A DNA stretch of 8,067 bases from a virus (IMGVR_UViG_2703718825_000004), one strand, 5' to 3'. Shown: positions 33 to 7,563, counted from the stretch's first letter. Program-made: numbers and translations. The notes: generated from the letters alone by a model not told the origin.

Positions 33-188
33 TTACTCCTCAGGTTCGTAAGCTGTGAAGACAGCGACCTCCGTCTGGCCGGTTCGGATTCGTACCTCGC
101 AGAGGTCTTTCCTCGTTACCAGTGCCGTCACTATGACGGTTAAACAGATGACGATCAGGGCGATTAACATCGCCTTTTGCTGCTTCAT
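33..188 (-). CDS. hokD: Hok/Gef-family type I membrane toxin (HokD/RelF-like), 51 aa
   Basis: Minus-strand translation MKQQKAMLIALIVICLTVIVTALVTRKDLCEVRIRTGQTEVAVFTAYEPEE matches, from memory, HokD/RelF and the Hok-family pattern (one TM helix, RKDLCEV...TGQTEVAVF...YE). AAGGAG Shine-Dalgarno lies about 9 nt upstream of the ATG at 188-186. Imperfect GC-rich hairpin in the 3' region (about 3-29). Sequence identity is recalled, not searched. Confidence 0.85.
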   Translation of the reverse strand: MKQQKAMLIALIVICLTVIVTALVTRKDLCEVRIRTGQTEVAVFTAYEPEE

Positions 189-245
189 AACCTGCTTCTC
201 CTTGCCTTTCGGCGCGTAAGAGGCTAACCTACGTTTGTGAAGCAT
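33..245 (-). CDS. Mok-like in-frame upstream reading frame overlapping hok (70 aa)
   Basis: Same frame as hok, starting at ATG 245-243 (MLHKRRLASYAPKGKEKQV then MKQQ...). This resembles the MokC/HokC arrangement in which mok is an N-terminally extended frame of hok. No convincing SD before this ATG; inference. Confidence 0.4.
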   Translation of the reverse strand: MLHKRRLASYAPKGKEKQVMKQQKAMLIALIVICLTVIVTALVTRKDLCEVRIRTGQTEVAVFTAYEPEE

Positions 246-431
246 AGATTGGGCCTCAGATTAATGTTAAGCGTCTTGCAGGACGCGTAATGTTAACTGG
301 GGCTTTTCTCTGTCTGCCTTACGGTGGCATGCCCGAGGCAGACAGCCTCAAGCACCCGCAGCAATTCTACTTAACTCTCGCTTTACAGCAAACCGTTTTG
401 CCCGATATGGGAATTCCCATACGGAATGAAT

Positions 432-2185: not shown

Positions 2186-2406
2186 TCTCCTTCCTCCCGC
2201 ACTGCTGTTTTATATGCCCGAAGCACATGCGATGTTTTTCCTGACACAGTGCTTCTCAGAAAGAAAATTCCACTGGTGTTTATTACCAGATACGGGTCAG
2301 CAAGACGCAGCATATCCAGTATGTGATTATGTTTTCTTGTTTCCAGCACCGTACTGGAAATAAGCATATGTGACACGGGGCCGAAATCATGATATCTGAT
2401 TTTCAT
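2182..2406 (-). CDS. Hypothetical phage protein, 74 aa
   Basis: ATG 2406-2404 with AGGGTGA SD-like motif. First gene of a four-gene translationally coupled chain (2406 down to 1336). Confidence 0.55.
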   Translation of the reverse strand: MKIRYHDFGPVSHMLISSTVLETRKHNHILDMLRLADPYLVINTSGIFFLRSTVSGKTSHVLRAYKTAVREEGE

Positions 2407-2427
2407 ATCATCACCCTGCTGTAAAAA

Positions 2428-3126
2428 TTACCCGTTATCTCCTGTCGTTATTTTCTGTATGACATCACGATGCTTATTAATTTCCCGCAGCGCGGCGCAT
2501 AAGCGCTCCCACTTCTGAACCTGACCTTTTGCCCGGCGCAGCTCGCGGTTAGCCACATGCAGCGATGGTAAAATCAGACCATCCGGATGCTTTCTGATGA
2601 ACGACGACTGTGACTGCACTGTGACCGCCACACTTTCAGTTTTAATTTCTTCCTGTGTTTCCGCTTCCCGGACTGGTAACGCAACACCTGCCGGCTGAGG
2701 AAAGGCTTTACCATCGGTTTCCGTTACCGATGCAGCTTTCGGCTCTGCCGGTAAATTATCGCCCGGTATGCAGTAACGATATTGACCGTCCTGATTTACG
2801 CGAATCAGACGACCTTTGCTGACAGCCATCGCCAGTGATGAATTCGCCCGGCGGGAGGTAATCCCGAACATTAACGCCAGTTCGTCAGCCGACTGAGGAC
2901 CATGCTGTTCAATCGCGTTAATCAGCATCTCTGCAGTGGTTTTTGGGGCCGCTTCAGTTGCCTCACTCGTCAGCCACCACATCGACCCCTTGTTATCAGC
3001 TTCGCCACGACGCTTCAGCTTCCAGAGTTCGGTAACAGCATCGTCACGGCTGATTTCAAGACGGGCTGCAATCTCGTGCGACGAGGCTTTTTTCAGTGCT
3101 TTCAGTGCGTCAAAAACGGTTTCCAT
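2428..3126 (-). CDS. Hypothetical phage protein, about 232 aa, with two winged-helix-like segments (possible DNA-binding)
   Basis: ORF track frame 2428..3192. The likely start is the internal ATG at 3126-3124 (METVFDALK...), preceded by GGGAGGA at 8-nt spacing. Winged-helix assignment is inference from sequence pattern only. Confidence 0.65.
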
Positions 3127-3160
3127 TAAATTTTCCTCCCGGTAAAAATTACTTCTCAAC

Positions 3161-3823
3161 TCAGACAAAACCGGCCGCCTTCCGGCGCTCATATTCCTGT
3201 TTCAGCAATTCAATTGGCGTTGGCCCTGGCGGGCGTTTGGGTGCTGCCAGTTGTCGCCGGACTGGCGGAACACTGAGGCCATTACCAACATGCTTTGCCC
3301 ATTTCGTCAGCTGCCTTTCCACAAGCCGTTTTAACTCCCCTTCGGTCATCTGGCGCTCAATCCCCTTTGAACGCATCTCGAGGCAAATGTGGTACAGCAC
3401 CGGCTGTGGCCACGGGTATTTATCACTCCCGTCGTACCGCCAGGATTCATTCCTCCAGCGACGGTATTCCTCCATCACGGCATCCACCGTCAGGCCAAAT
3501 GGATTTGCCCCGCTCTCCGAAATCAACGCCACAAACTCAGCCAGATCCGGAGGCCACGTTTCACCCGCCCGGCAGCGGTCCATGCACCGACGGCAGATCT
3601 GCCGGATTTGCTGTTCAGTCATCGCGCCAATCTGAGCAATCCAGAGTTTCGACGGCGCAGCCCCGTTCTTCTGAGTCCAGCGGTTCGAATACACCTCCCC
3701 CATAAGCTCCCACAGCTTCCAGGCCGTTTCCGTTGCTGATAAATCCGTTTTCACGTTCCCACTGTTCGCGTGCAGCCCGGATTTCCTGAACTGCCCGTGA
3801 TGCGGTGCCACCTGGTGCTGCAT
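3161..3823 (-). CDS. Lambda-P-like replication protein (DnaB helicase loader)
   Basis: Translation is co-linear with lambda P as recalled (e.g. [13 protein letters not shown] vs PSPGQFVAWCREE; [16 protein letters not shown] vs YPWKSNAHYWLVTNLYQNMR; [13 protein letters not shown] vs TDAELRRKAADEL). Start is uncertain: ATG 3823 has SD AAGGGGG but overlaps the O-like gene by 209 nt; alternative ATGs at 3703 (SD TGGGAG) and 3622 (8-nt overlap with the O-like stop). Confidence 0.7.
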
Positions 3824-4652
3824 GGCTTACCCCCTTGCTGACTGGTTTTACCTGTGCCCTGACGTGCTGCACGTGGCGGGCAAATTTCTGCTCCCACTGA
3901 ACCTGCGTGAAAACCTTCCCCTCCGCCATCCAGTAATCCCGGAATGCGGCAAGCTCAGCAGGTGTAAACTCAGGCTCAGGCAGAGCCATACCCCACACTG
4001 CTGCCCGCTGTCGAAAATCCGGCGACGGTTGCCAGACTCCAGTCATCGGAAATTTCCCGATCGGTTCGCTCAGGCCGTCCAGGTATTCAGGTTCGGCTGT
4101 CTGCAACGACGCGTCATTCAACTCACCGGTCGTAGCACTCTCGCGCATGCGCGCGTTATGTGTGGGGTTTAATTCTTTATCTGTATCTGTATCTGTCGTG
4201 ATTTGTCGTGACATATGCGTGACGCGTCGTGACTCATCGTGACAATCAGTGTTCTGCTTCCGCAGTCTTTCCCGCTCCCGCTGCGCTCTCTTGCGCTCTG
4301 CCGGGGATTTTGCGGTTTGCGAAACATTACCGTTATCCTCCTTCATCACCTGGCGTTTTTCCCATCCGGAAATAAGATCACCATCCAGAACTCGCCCCTG
4401 CATTGCATGCAAAATTGAATCAATCACGTCTTCCGTCACATCAAGCGCACTTGCTAAATCTTCCGTCGTGACATCAATGTGACCACGTAGTGACACGCCG
4501 TGACATGTCGTGACATTTCGTGACGCACTCACCAGAAGGTGGATATACACCGCCATCACTGTTGCGATTGGCTGTCCTGAGACCCTGGCAATGGTTCGCC
4601 ATTTGGGATCATTTGGCATGTCATGCCACAATCTGAGCCAGGCATTAGCCAT
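3615..4652 (-). CDS. Replication initiator (lambda-O-like / replisome organizer), about 345 aa
   Basis: Lies immediately upstream of the P-like gene. Likely start ATG 4652-4650 (MANAWLRLWHDMPNDPKWR...) with SD GAGGTGA; the ORF track starts at GTG 4658. Two clusters of GTGAC direct repeats at about 10-bp spacing lie inside the gene, as the ori iterons do in lambda O. N-terminal WLRL...ATVMAVYIHLL resembles replisome-organizer N-termini (inference). Confidence 0.7.
   Translation of the reverse strand: MANAWLRLWHDMPNDPKWRTIARVSGQPIATVMAVYIHLLVSASRNVTTCHGVSLRGHIDVTTEDLASALDVTEDVIDSILHAMQGRVLDGDLISGWEKRQVMKEDNGNVSQTAKSPAERKRAQRERERLRKQNTDCHDESRRVTHMSRQITTDTDTDKELNPTHNARMRESATTGELNDASLQTAEPEYLDGLSEPIGKFPMTGVWQPSPDFRQRAAVWGMALPEPEFTPAELAAFRDYWMAEGKVFTQVQWEQKFARHVQHVRAQVKPVSKGVSHAAPGGTASRAVQEIRAAREQWERENGFISNGNGLEAVGAYGGGVFEPLDSEERGCAVETLDCSDWRDD
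4196..4243. repeat. Iteron-like direct repeats, cluster 1 (five copies of CGTGA(C/T), about 10-bp period), putative ori core
   Basis: Seen directly: tgtCGTGAtttgtCGTGACatatgCGTGACgcgtCGTGACtcatCGTGACaatc. Flanked at 4167-4195 by an AT-rich tract that includes (TATCTG)x3, and by the palindrome CGCGCATGCGCG at 4143-4154. Confidence 0.55.
4468..4523. repeat. Iteron-like direct repeats, cluster 2 (six copies of GTGAC, 10-11-bp period)
   Basis: Seen directly: cGTGACatcaatGTGACcacgtaGTGACacgccGTGACatgtcGTGACatttcGTGACg, in the same orientation as cluster 1, within the 5' part of the O-like gene. Confidence 0.5.
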
Positions 4653-4720
4653 ACTCACCTCATCTGATACCGAACTTTACCCTCGAACATCCGGAATAAA
4701 TCCGGCATGAATATTGTTGG

Positions 4721-5146
4721 TCAATGCACGACAACAGCATTACCAGGCTGACCACCACTGTTAGTCAGGGTGCCCCAGGCGATCGCCGCTGCGACAAAAT
4801 CATCCACATCTTTCACCAGCCGATCCCTCCGTTCGACGATCTCACGGTAATATTCAGAGCTGTGACTGCGCATACGGGCCACCAGCAGAGGCGGCATTGC
4901 CTTTTCGATCGCCGGTAACAGAGCCTGAATTTTTTCAACAGCATCAGGGGTGTCTTTATCCAGCCAACGGAAAATTTTCTGGGTATTACGAGCCAGGGCT
5001 TCCGGATGGCTGTCGTCGTACAGTTCCGGGAACGTCATCCCCAGCTCGAAATAAGTCCGGGCTATTTCAGCTGCAGGAACTTTCTCACCGTCCGGATAGG
5101 CCCAGGCATTGATCGCCATGCGGATGTGCTCATGTTTGATTTTCAT
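4721..5146 (-). CDS. ydaT: YdaT-family protein (CII-position regulator of Rac-type prophages), 141 aa
   Basis: Starts MKIKHEHI and ends VVVH, as Rac YdaT does from memory. ATG 5146-5144 overlaps the Cro-like stop (ATGA). Sits in the cII position between cro and O. Confidence 0.75.
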   Translation of the reverse strand: MKIKHEHIRMAINAWAYPDGEKVPAAEIARTYFELGMTFPELYDDSHPEALARNTQKIFRWLDKDTPDAVEKIQALLPAIEKAMPPLLVARMRSHSSEYYREIVERRDRLVKDVDDFVAAAIAWGTLTNSGGQPGNAVVVH

Positions 5147-5370
5147 GAATCCCCCTTTCCTTCGCCCTGAGTGGTATCCTTCTTTTTGTAAAGTTCTGGG
5201 TTCAAAGATAATTTCCCCTTGGAGTATGCAGCAGCTTCCGCAGCCCTCCCCTTCGGAACTATTTCACCAGGACGCTTACGCCACATGTAAATAGCTTCGC
5301 GGGTTATCCCATAAAAATCGGCAACCCTCTGAACAGAACCAAAAAACTGGACAAGTTCATCAACTCGCAT
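5143..5370 (-). CDS. Cro-like HTH regulator (DicC/YdaS family), 75 aa
   Basis: Divergent from the CI-like repressor. SD GGAGGT 4 nt upstream of ATG 5370. Pattern L..FGS...VA...GI...IY.W.....VP.GRA shared with DicC as recalled. Confidence 0.8.
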   Translation of the reverse strand: MRVDELVQFFGSVQRVADFYGITREAIYMWRKRPGEIVPKGRAAEAAAYSKGKLSLNPELYKKKDTTQGEGKGDS

Positions 5371-5464
5371 TTTACCTCCTAAATCTAAGTATTTTTAGAT
5401 TACAAGATAATTTTTTTTAGGTCAATGCAATCTAAAATAATTTATATTCAATTTGCAGGAGAAA
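5371..5464. promoter_or_regulatory. OR-like divergent promoter/operator region between the cro-like and cI-like genes
   Basis: 94-bp AT-rich intergenic region. Inverted repeat AATCTAAgtatttTTAGATT at 5382-5401, and a second inverted repeat TTTTAG-N11-CTAAAA at 5415-5437. -10-like TATATT at 5443-5448 for the cI-like gene; TTGACC-N17-TAATCT on the minus strand for the cro-like gene. Confidence 0.6.
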
Positions 5465-6112
5465 ATGATGGAAAGCCTTGGCATCAGGCTTAAGAGACTT
5501 AGAAAAGATAAGGGGCTGACCCAAGTAGAACTGGGTAAGCTTTCAGGCGTGACTGGGGTTACTATAGGGTACTGGGAGAAAGATCTAAACGAACCAGGTA
5601 GCAAAGCTCTAAGTAAGTTAGCCCAGGCATTAGGAACTACTGAGTCCTATCTCCTATATGGAGTATCGTCTCCTGAATTATCTTTTGTACAAAGTACCTC
5701 AGGCACCAAGATCCCCTACCTTTCGTGGGGTGAGGCGATTTCTTTCCTAATCTTAAAAGGAGAGAAAACAATGGGAAATGTCGATAGGATCACCACATTC
5801 TTTGATGTCGAGGAAGGTGATTTTGCCGTTTCAATGCCTGATGACACAATGCATAACCCATCAGGATCACCGAGTATCCCAGTTGGTGCTACTGTGATCC
5901 TAAGGCCAGGAGAAAGTTATAAAAATGGCAGCATCGTCGCTGTAATAGTTCCGGATCCGCTTAAAAATGAACCATCTATGACTATAAAGAAATTAGTTAT
6001 TGATGGGAAGCTTGTGTATTTAAGCCCTCTCAATCCACGCTATCAGTCATCCTTACTTACACCAGAGTGTAAAATTGTTGCCGTAGCAAAAGGTGTACAG
6101 TTCAACTTATAA
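5465..6112 (+). CDS. Lambda-CI-like prophage repressor (N-terminal HTH_XRE plus C-terminal LexA-like S24 peptidase domain)
   Basis: N-terminal LGIRLKRLRKDKGLTQVELGKLSGVTGVTIGYWEK is a classic XRE HTH. C-terminal region has the S24 Ser motif (AVSMPD) and Lys motif (TIKKLVIDGKLVYLSPLNPRY, close to lambda cI [20 protein letters not shown]). The ORF track starts at TTG 5453; ATG at 5465 or 5468 follows AGGAG at 5457-5461. Confidence 0.9.
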   Translation: MMESLGIRLKRLRKDKGLTQVELGKLSGVTGVTIGYWEKDLNEPGSKALSKLAQALGTTESYLLYGVSSPELSFVQSTSGTKIPYLSWGEAISFLILKGEKTMGNVDRITTFFDVEEGDFAVSMPDDTMHNPSGSPSIPVGATVILRPGESYKNGSIVAVIVPDPLKNEPSMTIKKLVIDGKLVYLSPLNPRYQSSLLTPECKIVAVAKGVQFNL

Positions 6113-6133
6113 CCCGCCACGTCCTTTACTTGA

Positions 6134-6159
6134 GGTCGGCAATGCCGACCTTTTTTTTT
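6134..6159 (+). terminator. Rho-independent terminator downstream of the cI-like gene
   Basis: Perfect 7-bp stem GGTCGGC / GCCGACC with 3-nt loop, followed by T9 (6151-6159), 22 nt after the stop codon. Confidence 0.75.
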
Positions 6160-6164
6160 AAATT

Positions 6165-6207
6165 AATCTAGATTTATCTTGACTGAAAAACTAAATACTT
6201 TTAGATT
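6165..6207 (+). promoter_or_regulatory. PL/PdicB-like promoter with operator-like palindromes
   Basis: TTGACT (6179-6184), 17-bp spacer, TAGATT (6202-6207). Perfect 10-bp palindrome AATCTAGATT at 6165-6174. CTAAATACTTTTAGATT at 6191-6207 is 15/17 identical to CTAAGTATTTTTAGATT at 5385-5401 in the OR-like region. Confidence 0.5.
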
Positions 6208-6387
6208 TATTACATACCACCCTACCTCGCCCCACAGAACGTCGGGCAATACCTCGAGTTACCCGGCAGTGGTCAGGGGTTAAGTAGCCAGCCCGAGGCG
6301 TATGAACATGACGGCGGGAACACTTTGTATAACAGCGCAGCAGGTTTTTAGTTCCGCGACCCGGCGTTAAGGGTAAATGAGGTCAAC

Positions 6388-6540
6388 ATGGATATGCTCA
6401 ATCTTGGCAACAATGAATCTCTGGTGTGCGGAGTATTCCCCAACCACGACGGCACGTTTACCGCGATGACGTATACCAGAAGTAAAACGTTTAAAACCGA
6501 AGCTGGCGCGCATCGCTGGTTAGCAAGAAACGCTAACTGA
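6388..6540 (+). CDS. Small protein, 50 aa (YdfA-like by position)
   Basis: ATG 6388 preceded by SD TGAGGT at 5-nt spacing. Translation MDMLNLGNNESLVCGVFPNHDGTFTAMTYTRSKTFKTEAGAHRWLARNAN. Below the ORF-track cutoff. The YdfA equivalence rests on gene order in the K-12 dicA-ydfABC-dicF-dicB operon and is not sequence-verified. Confidence 0.5.
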   Translation: MDMLNLGNNESLVCGVFPNHDGTFTAMTYTRSKTFKTEAGAHRWLARNAN

Positions 6541-6802
6541 TTAGCGCCAGTAAAAACAGGTTTCCACAGGTTAATTTACCCTGAAAAGTCAGGGCATAAC
6601 ACGAAAGCGCACGGCGAGATCCCTTTGCATATAAGTCTTGTCGTTAAATTTCTTCGACCGTGCGCTTCTGGTTGTGGCAATCCGCGAAATGGCGCGGCGG
6701 TAAGTATGGCGGGGTTATTCCTTCCCCCATTGAGGACACCGGGTTGTCAGGTTGACCATACGCTTAAGTGACAACCCCGCTGCAACGCCCTCTGTTATCA
6801 AT

Positions 6803-6855
6803 TTTCTGGTGACGTTTGGCGGTATCAGTTTTACTCCGTGACTGCTCTGCCGCCC
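6803..6855 (+). ncRNA. dicF: DicF small regulatory RNA (ftsZ-targeting sRNA of the Qin-type dicB operon)
   Basis: Sequence TTTCTGGTGACGTTTGGCGGTATCAGTTTTACTCCGTGACTGCTCTGCCGCCC matches the 53-nt DicF sequence as I recall it, followed by a T5 tail (6856-6860). It sits immediately upstream of dicB as in K-12. Confidence 0.85.
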
Positions 6856-7029
6856 TTTTTAAAGTGAATTTTGTGATGCGGTGAATGCGGCTGAGCGCAC
6901 GCGGAACAGTTAAAACCAAAAACAGTGTTATGGGTGGATTCTCTGTATCCGGCGTTAATTGTTAACTGGTTAACGTCACCTGGAGGCACCAGGCACTGCA
7001 TCACAAAATTCATTGTTGAGGACGCGATA

Positions 7030-7218
7030 ATGGAAACGTTATTACCAAACGTTAATACGTCTGAAGGTTGTTTTGAAATTGGTGTCACTATCAGTAACCC
7101 TGTATTTACTGAAGATGCCATTAACAAGAGAAAACACGAACGGGAGTTATTAAATAAAATATGCATTCTTTCAATGCTGGCCCGTTTACGTCCGATACAA
7201 AAAGGATGCTGGCAATGA
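7030..7218 (+). CDS. dicB: DicB cell-division inhibitor (MinC-activating), 62 aa
   Basis: Translation METLLPNVNTSEGCFEIGVTISNPVFTEDAINKRKHERELLNKICILSMLARLRPIQKGCWQ matches DicB as recalled. SD GAGGA 7 nt upstream of ATG 7030. The ORF-track frame 6925..7218 is an upstream extension crossing the DicF terminator. Confidence 0.9.
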   Translation: METLLPNVNTSEGCFEIGVTISNPVFTEDAINKRKHERELLNKICILSMLARLRPIQKGCWQ

Positions 7219-7406
7219 ATACAGCATTTGCACTTGTTCTGACAGTTTTTCTTGTTTCCGGAGAGCCAGTTGATATTGCAGTCAGTGTTCACAGGACAAT
7301 GCAGGAGTGTGTGACTGCAGCAACCGAACAGAAAATTCCCGGTAACTGTTACCCTGTCGATAAAGTTATTCACCAGGATAATAACGAAATCCCGGCAGGT
7401 CTTTAA
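7215..7406 (+). CDS. ydfD: YdfD (Qin-type prophage lysis-associated small membrane protein), 63 aa
   Basis: ATG 7215 overlaps the dicB stop (ATGA). Translation MNTAFALVLTVFLVSGEPVDIAVSVHRTMQEC... with an N-terminal TM helix; matches YdfD position and, from memory, sequence. The ORF-track frame starts earlier at 7161. Confidence 0.85.
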   Translation: MNTAFALVLTVFLVSGEPVDIAVSVHRTMQECVTAATEQKIPGNCYPVDKVIHQDNNEIPAGL

Positions 7407-7563
7407 AACAGTTCCGTAATAAACATCCGATTTCATTCTTATATGCCAGAAATGGCAGGGATTTGTTCACCCTTAAATCTGTAATGAGGTAAAACAAAAA
7501 ATTGTTTGCGAGGATAAACCCGGTATACCCCGCCCTGCCCTCGATTCCTGGGATGCTGAATAT

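Follow-up and report, generated by a model that had tools for sequence, protein, structure and literature searches.

In the Qin prophage of Escherichia coli K-12, the divergent genes dicC (cro-like) and dicA (repressor) are accompanied by a separate promoter, dicBp, which drives the ydfA...dicF-dicB-ydfD operon and has been described as a promoter of the PL (early-left) type (bioRxiv 10.1101/2023.04.14.536235). DicA lacks an Ala-Gly cleavage site and dicBp is not induced by mitomycin C; the Qin antirepressor Rem derepresses dicBp 165-fold, and spontaneous DicC-dependent switching also occurs (bioRxiv 10.1101/2023.04.14.536235). Here we analyse an 8,067-nucleotide (nt) stretch of viral DNA (IMGVR_UViG_2703718825_000004; hereafter ‘the window’, numbered from its first nucleotide), in which a Qin-like operon encoding the small RNA (sRNA) DicF, the division inhibitor DicB and the protein YdfD follows the gene for a CI-like repressor of 214 amino acids (aa). 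We consider it likely that this region is the immunity switch and the start of the early-left operon of an E. coli O26:H11 lambdoid prophage, and that it is governed by a pseudo-peptidase repressor that RecA does not cause to be cleaved.

Further precedents come from the Gifsy prophages and from those of enterohaemorrhagic E. coli (EHEC). The Gifsy-1, -2 and -3 repressors (GfoR, GtgR and GfhR) are, like the repressor of the window, lambdoid prophage repressors without a cleavage signature; the Gifsy repressors stay uncleaved and are removed by LexA-controlled antirepressors, also in trans between prophages (PMC3121763). CP-933P/Sp12 (PaaR2-YdaS-YdaT) and the Sakai prophages Sp4, Sp6, Sp9 and Sp10 of O157:H7 resemble the prophage of the window in being effector-carrying lambdoid prophages of EHEC, in having YdaT as CII analogue and in carrying kil or dicB genes downstream of the repressor; their CI analogues lack a peptidase motif, and they show no response to mitomycin C (PMC8630535; PMC2669165). 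For Sp6, Sp9 and Sp10, whose repressors are without this motif, spontaneous induction has been described and none by mitomycin C (PMC2669165), and in CP-933P YdaT was shown to be a CII analogue and not a toxin (PMC8630535). The repressor of the window departs from all of these in one respect: the Gifsy and DicA-class proteins are short (~135-150 aa) and wholly lack the C-terminal peptidase-fold domain, and the CP-933P and Sakai repressors likewise have no S24 domain, whereas the window repressor is of full length.

The repressor has an S24 fold with a degenerate active site

The repressor (WP_000444615.1; 5468-6112, + strand) combines a helix-turn-helix (HTH) domain (HTH_3, E 2e-12) with a Peptidase_S24 domain (E 5.5e-11), the latter scoring 42.6 bits in Pfam against a cut-off of 23.3. 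Its HTH is most similar to the N-terminal domain of P22 C2 (phmmer E 2.9e-7). In the AlphaFold model (predicted local distance difference test score, pLDDT, of 79), the C-terminal domain superimposes on that of lambda CI (1f39/1kca) with a TM score of 0.88 and a root-mean-square deviation of 1.4-1.6 Å over 101 residues (Foldseek), and matches to LexA and UmuD' were also obtained. The proposal of an earlier note on this DNA that a long S24-fold repressor takes the place of the 135-aa DicA is thus borne out by Pfam and by the model. While DicA has no S24 domain, the window repressor carries the complete fold; the two proteins share 30% identity within the HTH (residues 3-65 only), neither has the Ala-Gly pair, and the NCBIfam DicA model gives the window repressor 44.7 bits, below its cut-off of 101. 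The two-domain architecture, the Lys general base and the core motifs PS.P.G, KKL and PLNP.Y are those of lambda CI and P22 C2.

The residues that would carry out self-cleavage differ from those two repressors. The gapless phmmer alignment to lambda CI places GNSM (Ser149) on DDTM, within the conserved flanks xM..P.GS.PS.P.G, so that the nucleophile position (S149 in lambda CI, S119 in LexA) is held by Thr127 (RefSeq numbering), and the same register was returned by a 16-homologue alignment, by a 109-sequence alignment (the query, lambda CI and 107 HTH-S24 relatives from an exhaustive profile search) and by two further alignments. The serine of ‘AVSMPD’, which the earlier note had taken for the catalytic one, is Ser122; it lies five residues upstream of the catalytic position, in a column that holds S, E, K, T, I or R in homologues at 50-70% identity. 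Where lambda CI has its scissile Ala-Gly, found as W-V-Q-A-G in the nearest canonical relatives, the window repressor has W-G-E-A-I, that is Ala90-Ile91, and elsewhere in the clade the P1' position is occupied by M, T, K, V or L. The general base was correctly recognised in the motif TIKKL, in which Lys174 aligns with K192 of lambda CI (TFKKL) and K156 of LexA and is invariant in the clade. Compared to lambda CI and P22 C2, the window repressor has therefore exchanged Ser for Thr, Ala-Gly for Ala-Ile and the Gly before the motif (GDSM/GNSM) for Asp, and with these differences RecA-stimulated self-cleavage is not expected.

These substitutions are shared by a whole clade. Thr stands at the catalytic position in all 13 full-length members (50-96% identity), and D126, M128, K174 and K175 are invariant in the 16-homologue clade alignment; repressors with DDTM and with W-x-E-A-[IMTKV], which lacks the Gly, were found in E. 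coli, Salmonella, Yersinia, Symbiopectobacterium, Arsenophonus and Sodalis. The next relatives (P0018-20, 42-46% identity) have VQAG, GDSM and K. Among the 107 HTH-S24 relatives, Ser was kept in 48 of 49 sequences with Ala-Gly and lost in 26 of 51 without it (Fisher p = 8e-9, 99 relatives), a joint loss of cut site and nucleophile such as one would anticipate if self-cleavage had been given up altogether. Judged from these alignments, the protein is most likely an S24 pseudo-peptidase, its fold probably retained for oligomerisation. The RecA/SOS-dependent autocleavage that had been predicted for it fares poorly against the change of the nucleophile Ser to Thr and the loss of the P1' Gly (Ile in the window repressor), both of them clade-wide: direct RecA-stimulated cleavage appears improbable because both the nucleophile and the Ala-Gly cut site are gone.

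Some lines of evidence were considered and set aside. The cleavage loop is helical in the model (residues 87-96), but so is that of a canonical Ala-Gly relative, P0019 (residues 87-91), and the feature was dropped. The phages vB_EcoS-689R5 and vB_EcoM-606R7 encode the same repressor and might have spoken to its inducibility; the only paper found for this name series treats phages located in the genomes of clinical isolates, and the records were accordingly not counted as proof that the phages had been induced.

Probable operators and promoters flank the repressor gene

A 20-bp palindrome, AATCTAA-N6-TTAGATT, occurs three times in the 8-kb window (0.34 copies expected), and all three copies are confined to the two intergenic regions that flank the repressor gene. 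Two of them make up an operator cluster resembling lambda OR (right operator) at 5382-5448, with a perfect copy at 5382-5401 and one with a single mismatch at 5429-5448; a weaker copy (10/14) was read by eye at 5404-5423. The third (6188-6207, one mismatch) covers the spacer and -10 element of a PL-like promoter, and a weaker copy (10/14, likewise read by eye) at 6165-6184 covers its -35 element. With the weak copies included, a tripartite OR and a bipartite OL (left operator) would emerge, spaced at 22-25 bp, and the PL-like region forms a direct repeat with OR at 86%. This is akin to lambda CI and P22 C2, where tripartite OR-like and OL-like operators overlap promoters.

The PL-like promoter itself, TTGACT-N17-TAGATT at 6179-6207 (+ strand), came from a promoter scan and substantiates the promoter claimed earlier for the region 6165-6207; because the operator overlaps its -10 element, it is very probably under repressor control. 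On the other side, a PR-like promoter, TTGACC-N17-TAATCT (5398-5426, - strand), faces cro, overlaps the operators and would serve cro, ydaT and the replication genes; we infer it from reading the sequence, since it fell below the matches of at least 9/12 that the scan reported. A strong intrinsic terminator after the repressor gene (6132-6161, + strand; a 9-bp stem with a loop of 3 at 6132-6152, then a T-run), detected by a terminator scan and as an inverted repeat, separates that gene from the PL-like promoter. Divergent repressor and cro genes with repeated palindromes on both sides that overlap promoters constitute a lambdoid immunity layout, and gene order, palindromes and promoters alike uphold the CI/Cro/PL logic ascribed to the region. 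The immunity regions of Qin and the window are without DNA similarity, so that operators and specificity differ between the two.

The left operon is of Qin type

Downstream of the repressor gene, ydfA, dicF, dicB and ydfD follow on one strand in Qin-type order. The first gene of the operon is a ydfA homologue (DUF1391; 6388-6540, + strand; Pfam E 1.3e-28), whose product has 79.6% identity with YdfA of Qin and 77% with YdaF of Rac, the DNA being 84.7% identical to that of Qin. The DicF sRNA, with its terminator-like 3' stem-loop, lies at 6803-6855 (+ strand; Rfam RF00039, 76.7 bits against a gathering score of 48, E 4.6e-16) and is identical to K-12 dicF at all 53 nt. The gene for DicB, the MinC-dependent cell-division inhibitor, spans 7030-7218 (+ strand; Pfam E 6e-37; NCBIfam E 3e-39, above cut-off), its product being 88.7% identical to K-12 DicB, and ydfD (DUF1482; 7215-7406, + strand; Pfam E 7.8e-25) encodes a protein 93.7% identical to K-12 YdfD, which is annotated there as a lysis protein. 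Over 6576-7498 the DNA shares 94.8% identity with Qin. Relative to Qin, ydfB and ydfC are absent, and the spacer between ydfA and dicF measures 262 nt (6541-6802) versus ~720 nt (Qin, L005 10665-11382); as Qin similarity resumes at 6576, ~230 nt upstream of dicF, the region for processing of the DicF precursor is retained.

A low-threshold Rfam search of 6100-7450 returned only DicF and a sub-threshold match to STnc100, a Salmonella sRNA candidate, across the dicF-dicB spacer (6853-7062, + strand; 35.7 bits where the gathering score is 47, E 8.8e-6); this match spans the entire model. In three O26 genomes (e.g. RM8426, L014 ~2250-3500) the interval between ydfA and dicF has taken up an IS600 element, at the equivalent of window position ~6750, which separates dicF-dicB-ydfD from the PL-like promoter.

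Put together, these elements suggest how the switch may operate. Through its HTH, the 214-aa repressor would bind the AATCTAA-N6-TTAGATT operators on either side of its own gene and so shut two promoters, the leftward PR-like promoter of cro, the ydaT/cII-like gene and the replication genes, and the rightward PL-like promoter of ydfA, dicF, dicB and ydfD and then, outside the window, of the exonuclease gene, xis and int. Once repression is lifted, the PL transcript would yield, as in Qin, DicF (antisense to ftsZ and other mRNAs), DicB (a MinC-dependent block to division) and YdfD. The C-terminal S24 domain would be kept for dimerisation and cooperative binding, and activated RecA (RecA*) would not inactivate the repressor by self-cleavage.

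Derepression and the rival explanations

If RecA* does not act on the repressor, something else should remove it. Antirepression or stochastic switching is probably the route: an antirepressor could act in cis or come from another prophage of the strain, possibly under LexA control, or the switch could on rare occasions pass stochastically to the Cro state. Precedent for these routes comes from DicA/Rem in Qin and from the Gifsy repressors, the latter offering the most plausible model for removal of the window repressor.

We looked for traces of such a trigger in the prophage. At the position equivalent to that of Qin rem, between hokD and the ydfU/DUF968 gene, lies an open reading frame (ORF; L001 14888-15166) that was considered as a Rem-type antirepressor and rejected, as it has no similarity to Rem and belongs to a PHROG of unknown function. 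In Yersinia prophages whose repressors belong to the same clade, the nin region carries an antirepressor-type gene (pRha+ANT). LexA boxes were sought by a consensus-score scan, which was validated by its recovery of the host lexA boxes in a Yersinia control locus. The 42.7 kb of the prophage contain no perfect CTGT-N8-ACAG box. The only good box in ~80 kb is a LexA-box-like site outside the window, TACTGTAAAAATATCCAGTT (L001 12226-12245, NC_013361.1), which matches the consensus at 16/20 positions with a perfect CTG-N10-CAG and falls in codons 3-9 of the prophage's DNA methyltransferase gene, which follows the Q-like gene. A second CTG-N10-CAG, TGCTGGCAATGAATACAGCA (7207-7226, at the dicB stop and ydfD start; 13/20), is also present in mEp460_ev081 and was judged a chance match in coding sequence.

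Several observations tell against a pseudo-peptidase repressor relieved by an antirepressor or by chance. No Rem homologue exists at the rem-equivalent position, and neither an antirepressor PHROG nor an ANT domain was found among the small nin-region ORFs of this prophage that were tested, a search that did not cover the other O26 prophages. No LexA box lies near a candidate antirepressor, the sole good one being inside the 5' end of the methyltransferase gene. Binding of the repressor to the palindromes, most likely as it is, is deduced from their symmetry and position only. Finally, Thr127 and Lys174 are strictly conserved, which could mean residual or altered catalysis and not a purely structural role, and Thr can in principle serve as a nucleophile.

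The model of the earlier note has the repressor function as an autopeptidase of the LexA type: RecA*, formed after DNA damage, provokes its self-cleavage, such that the SOS response directly switches on dicF, dicB and ydfD. The above-threshold Pfam match, the S24 fold confirmed by the model, the retention of the general-base Lys and of the P1 Ala, and the conservation of the Thr-Lys pair, as expected if the pair still matters, all speak for it. Yet it is Thr and not Ser that occupies the nucleophile position, the serine proposed in its stead falls in a variable column, the P1' Gly has given way to Ile and across the clade to varied bulky or charged residues, and the retention of Ser by 48 of 49 Ala-Gly relatives indicates that the two losses go together. 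Experience with LexA points the same way: G85D is the classic non-inducible allele (PDB 1JHF title). The S119A protein, for its part, is inert, being incapable of self-cleavage (PMC4980697). We therefore give the direct model little credence. An indirect link to SOS seems less remote, if still rather unlikely: a LexA-repressed antirepressor, from this or another O26 prophage, would displace the uncleaved repressor and make DicB and DicF damage-inducible in a recA- and lexA-dependent manner. Precedents are Gifsy-1 and -3, 186 Tum and N15 AntC, among them cases of crosstalk in trans from one prophage to another (PMC3121763), and the Yersinia prophages with relatives of the repressor and a pRha-ANT gene, the poly-lysogeny of O26 11368 (see below) and the one strong LexA-box-like site, TACTGTAAAAATATCCAGTT (16/20), fit this scheme. 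However, no antirepressor gene was recognised in this prophage, and the box sits inside the 5' end of the methyltransferase gene and not upstream of a small ORF; Qin dicBp, the closest studied case, is not induced by mitomycin C (bioRxiv 10.1101/2023.04.14.536235), nor are the O157 prophages with peptidase-less repressors (PMC2669165).

It is also conceivable, but very improbable, that the locus is a decaying relic whose repressor or operators no longer function, leaving the module silent or constitutively leaky. The prophage is indeed defective, with a frameshifted portal gene and an IS66 element within the tail-fibre gene (L004 2431-5015 and 19423-22038), ydfB and ydfC are deleted in comparison to Qin, and IS600 splits ydfA from dicF in the three O26 strains mentioned above. 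The repressor ORF, on the other hand, is intact and identical across many O26 genomes, the 2.75-kb arrangement recurs in 467 genomes, the repressor clade is maintained in several genera, its HTH and core residues remaining invariant, and near-perfect operator palindromes lie over good promoters. DicB is, moreover, toxic when derepressed in K-12, so that loss of repression should be counter-selected. A pseudo-peptidase repressor displaced by an antirepressor or by stochastic switching thus remains the reading that we favour, and it would place a widespread division-inhibitor operon under an antirepressor or some other trigger independent of RecA.

The nature of the trigger matters because of what DicB and DicF do: they stop cells from dividing, alter metabolism and confer protection against phage, and EHEC strains have several copies of them. 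The trigger bears on filamentation, persistence and prophage mobilisation under SOS-inducing antibiotics. The case also indicates that SOS inducibility does not follow from an ‘S24/LexA family’ annotation, given a fold that is kept and a catalytic serine and cut site that are gone.

Exchange of repressors beside dicB

The repressors upstream of dicB are highly exchangeable. DicA-like repressors of 135 aa stand there in K-12, in mEp460_ev081 and in three sampled genomes, and a 139-aa type in phage Tritos and in one sampled genome. Three S24-fold types were also encountered beside dicB, and all three are degenerate, each in its own manner: that of the window has Ala-Ile, DDTM and Lys; a 238-aa type keeps Ala-Gly and has GDAM (Ser to Ala); and a 199-212-aa type has Ala-Ala, SDSM and an Arg that replaces the catalytic Lys. 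The two other types lie directly upstream of dicB in E. coli OV24 (WP_000103687.1; L017 753-1469), in phage vB_EcoS-640R1 (L007 2297-2896) and in IMG/VR loci (among L022-L101). The phage mEp460_4F5, which encodes a relative of the window repressor (41% identity), had been a candidate for a canonical repressor beside dicB, but was discarded as no dicB follows downstream.

For a wider view we inspected 80 IMG/VR contigs, each of which encodes a DicB identical to that of the window. Sixteen have S24-fold repressors (11, 4 and 1 of the three types), ~49 have short ones and 15 were unclassifiable, with no S24 domain in those of the 15 that were tested. A canonical repressor with Ala-Gly, Ser and Lys was found in none of the 80, the 16 S24-fold proteins being degenerate without exception; since the sample is biased towards closely related left operons, this absence is a lead and not a conclusion. 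We tentatively raise the possibility, which we regard as rather less likely than not, that an enterobacterial lambdoid CI clade converted its autopeptidase domain to a non-catalytic module and that two further S24 lineages adjacent to dicBF were crippled independently. If this were general, phages with dicF/dicB operons would more than once have freed their switch from the direct sensing of RecA, and the conserved Thr-Lys pocket might serve instead to dock an antirepressor or a signal.

The Cro and YdaT side

To the left of the repressor gene, the Cro-like repressor (5143-5370, - strand) is of the P22 Cro/DicC type (Pfam P22_Cro E 1.2e-9; NCBIfam DicC E 4.8e-8), with 32% identity to Qin DicC. 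Downstream of cro in the PR operon, at the cII position, lies a YdaT-family gene (4721-5146, - strand; Pfam YdaT_toxin E 7.4e-11) that falls into PHROG 163, ‘CII-like transcriptional activator’ (E 4e-47), and whose product shares 31% identity with Rac YdaT and 32% with YdfX, a remnant in Qin. As opposed to CP-933P and the Sakai prophages, the Cro protein is not of the YdaS type: it gave no BLAST match to Rac YdaS and scored 16.2 bits with Pfam YdaS, below the cut-off of 30. No significant BLAST match to a Rac-type, RacR-like repressor was found at the locus, and only YdaT is shared with Rac, at the family level.

These findings are at odds with the idea, also raised earlier, of a mosaic of Rac-type and Qin-type modules, for the Cro protein resembles DicC and not YdaS, YdaT is about equally distant (~31%) from both prophages, and Cro-family and YdaT-family genes lie beyond the repressor at every dicB module in six sampled E. 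coli genomes (picked evenly down the ranking of dicB matches). What is found here is the usual layout of this prophage group in its intact state, not a Rac/Qin hybrid. The YdaT/cII-like gene, the replication genes, exo, xis and int are intact in the prophage of the window and decayed in Qin. Qin ydfX (K-12, L005 9347-9637) overlaps the end of dicC and matches the N-terminal 83 residues of the window YdaT (32% identity, E 8e-8); it looks like a truncated remnant of a YdaT/cII-like gene, and from this resemblance and its position after dicC Qin would formerly have had the same gene.

Prophage context and prevalence

A chromosomal segment of E. coli O26:H11 str. 11368 (NC_013361.1) matches the window at 100% identity, as do segments of many other O26 genomes. 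RefSeq annotates the surrounding 80 kb as a lambdoid prophage adjoining potC, in which int, xis, the exonuclease gene, DUF1482 (ydfD), dicB, DUF1391 (ydfA) and a ‘LexA family protein’ are followed by the divergent genes for the Cro/CI-family and YdaT-family proteins, a DnaT-like O protein and P, then by nin-type ORFs, hokD, DUF968, RusA, the Q-like DUF1133 protein, the DNA methyltransferase and tRNAs, and finally by lysis genes, terminase, and head and tail genes. Every gene named in the earlier note was recovered at its place by Pfam, Rfam, PHROG and comparison with K-12. The novelty that the note implied did not hold up, as the arrangement is already annotated in RefSeq and, from YdaT to YdfD with the same repressor (2.75 kb), was counted in 467 of 5,426 complete E. 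coli genomes. As immunity and early-left regions of lambdoid prophages go, the locus is ordinary. The dicF-dicB-ydfD segment is far more widespread, occurring in 4,647 of the 5,426 genomes with a median of two copies and a maximum of nine. Strain O26 11368 is poly-lysogenic, inasmuch as the dicF-dicB-ydfD query matches nine places in its chromosome.

Among the genes of the prophage is espK, which encodes a type III effector. The outer end of the prophage adjoins tRNA-Ser/hyaA and its int end adjoins potC, which suggests rearrangement between prophages. Within the window, a complete hok/sok type I toxin-antitoxin locus occupies 33-357 (- strand; sok RNA, Rfam RF01794, 114.9 bits), with a HokD-like ORF at 33-245 whose position relative to the nin region is that of hokD in Qin. 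The O-like replication gene encodes a DnaT DNA-binding domain instead of the lambda O domain (window ORFs 3161-3823 and 3615-4658, both on the - strand); the longest P-like ORF overlaps the O-like gene by ~200 nt, whereas the P protein annotated in RefSeq is shorter (154 aa), with an overlap of 8 nt.

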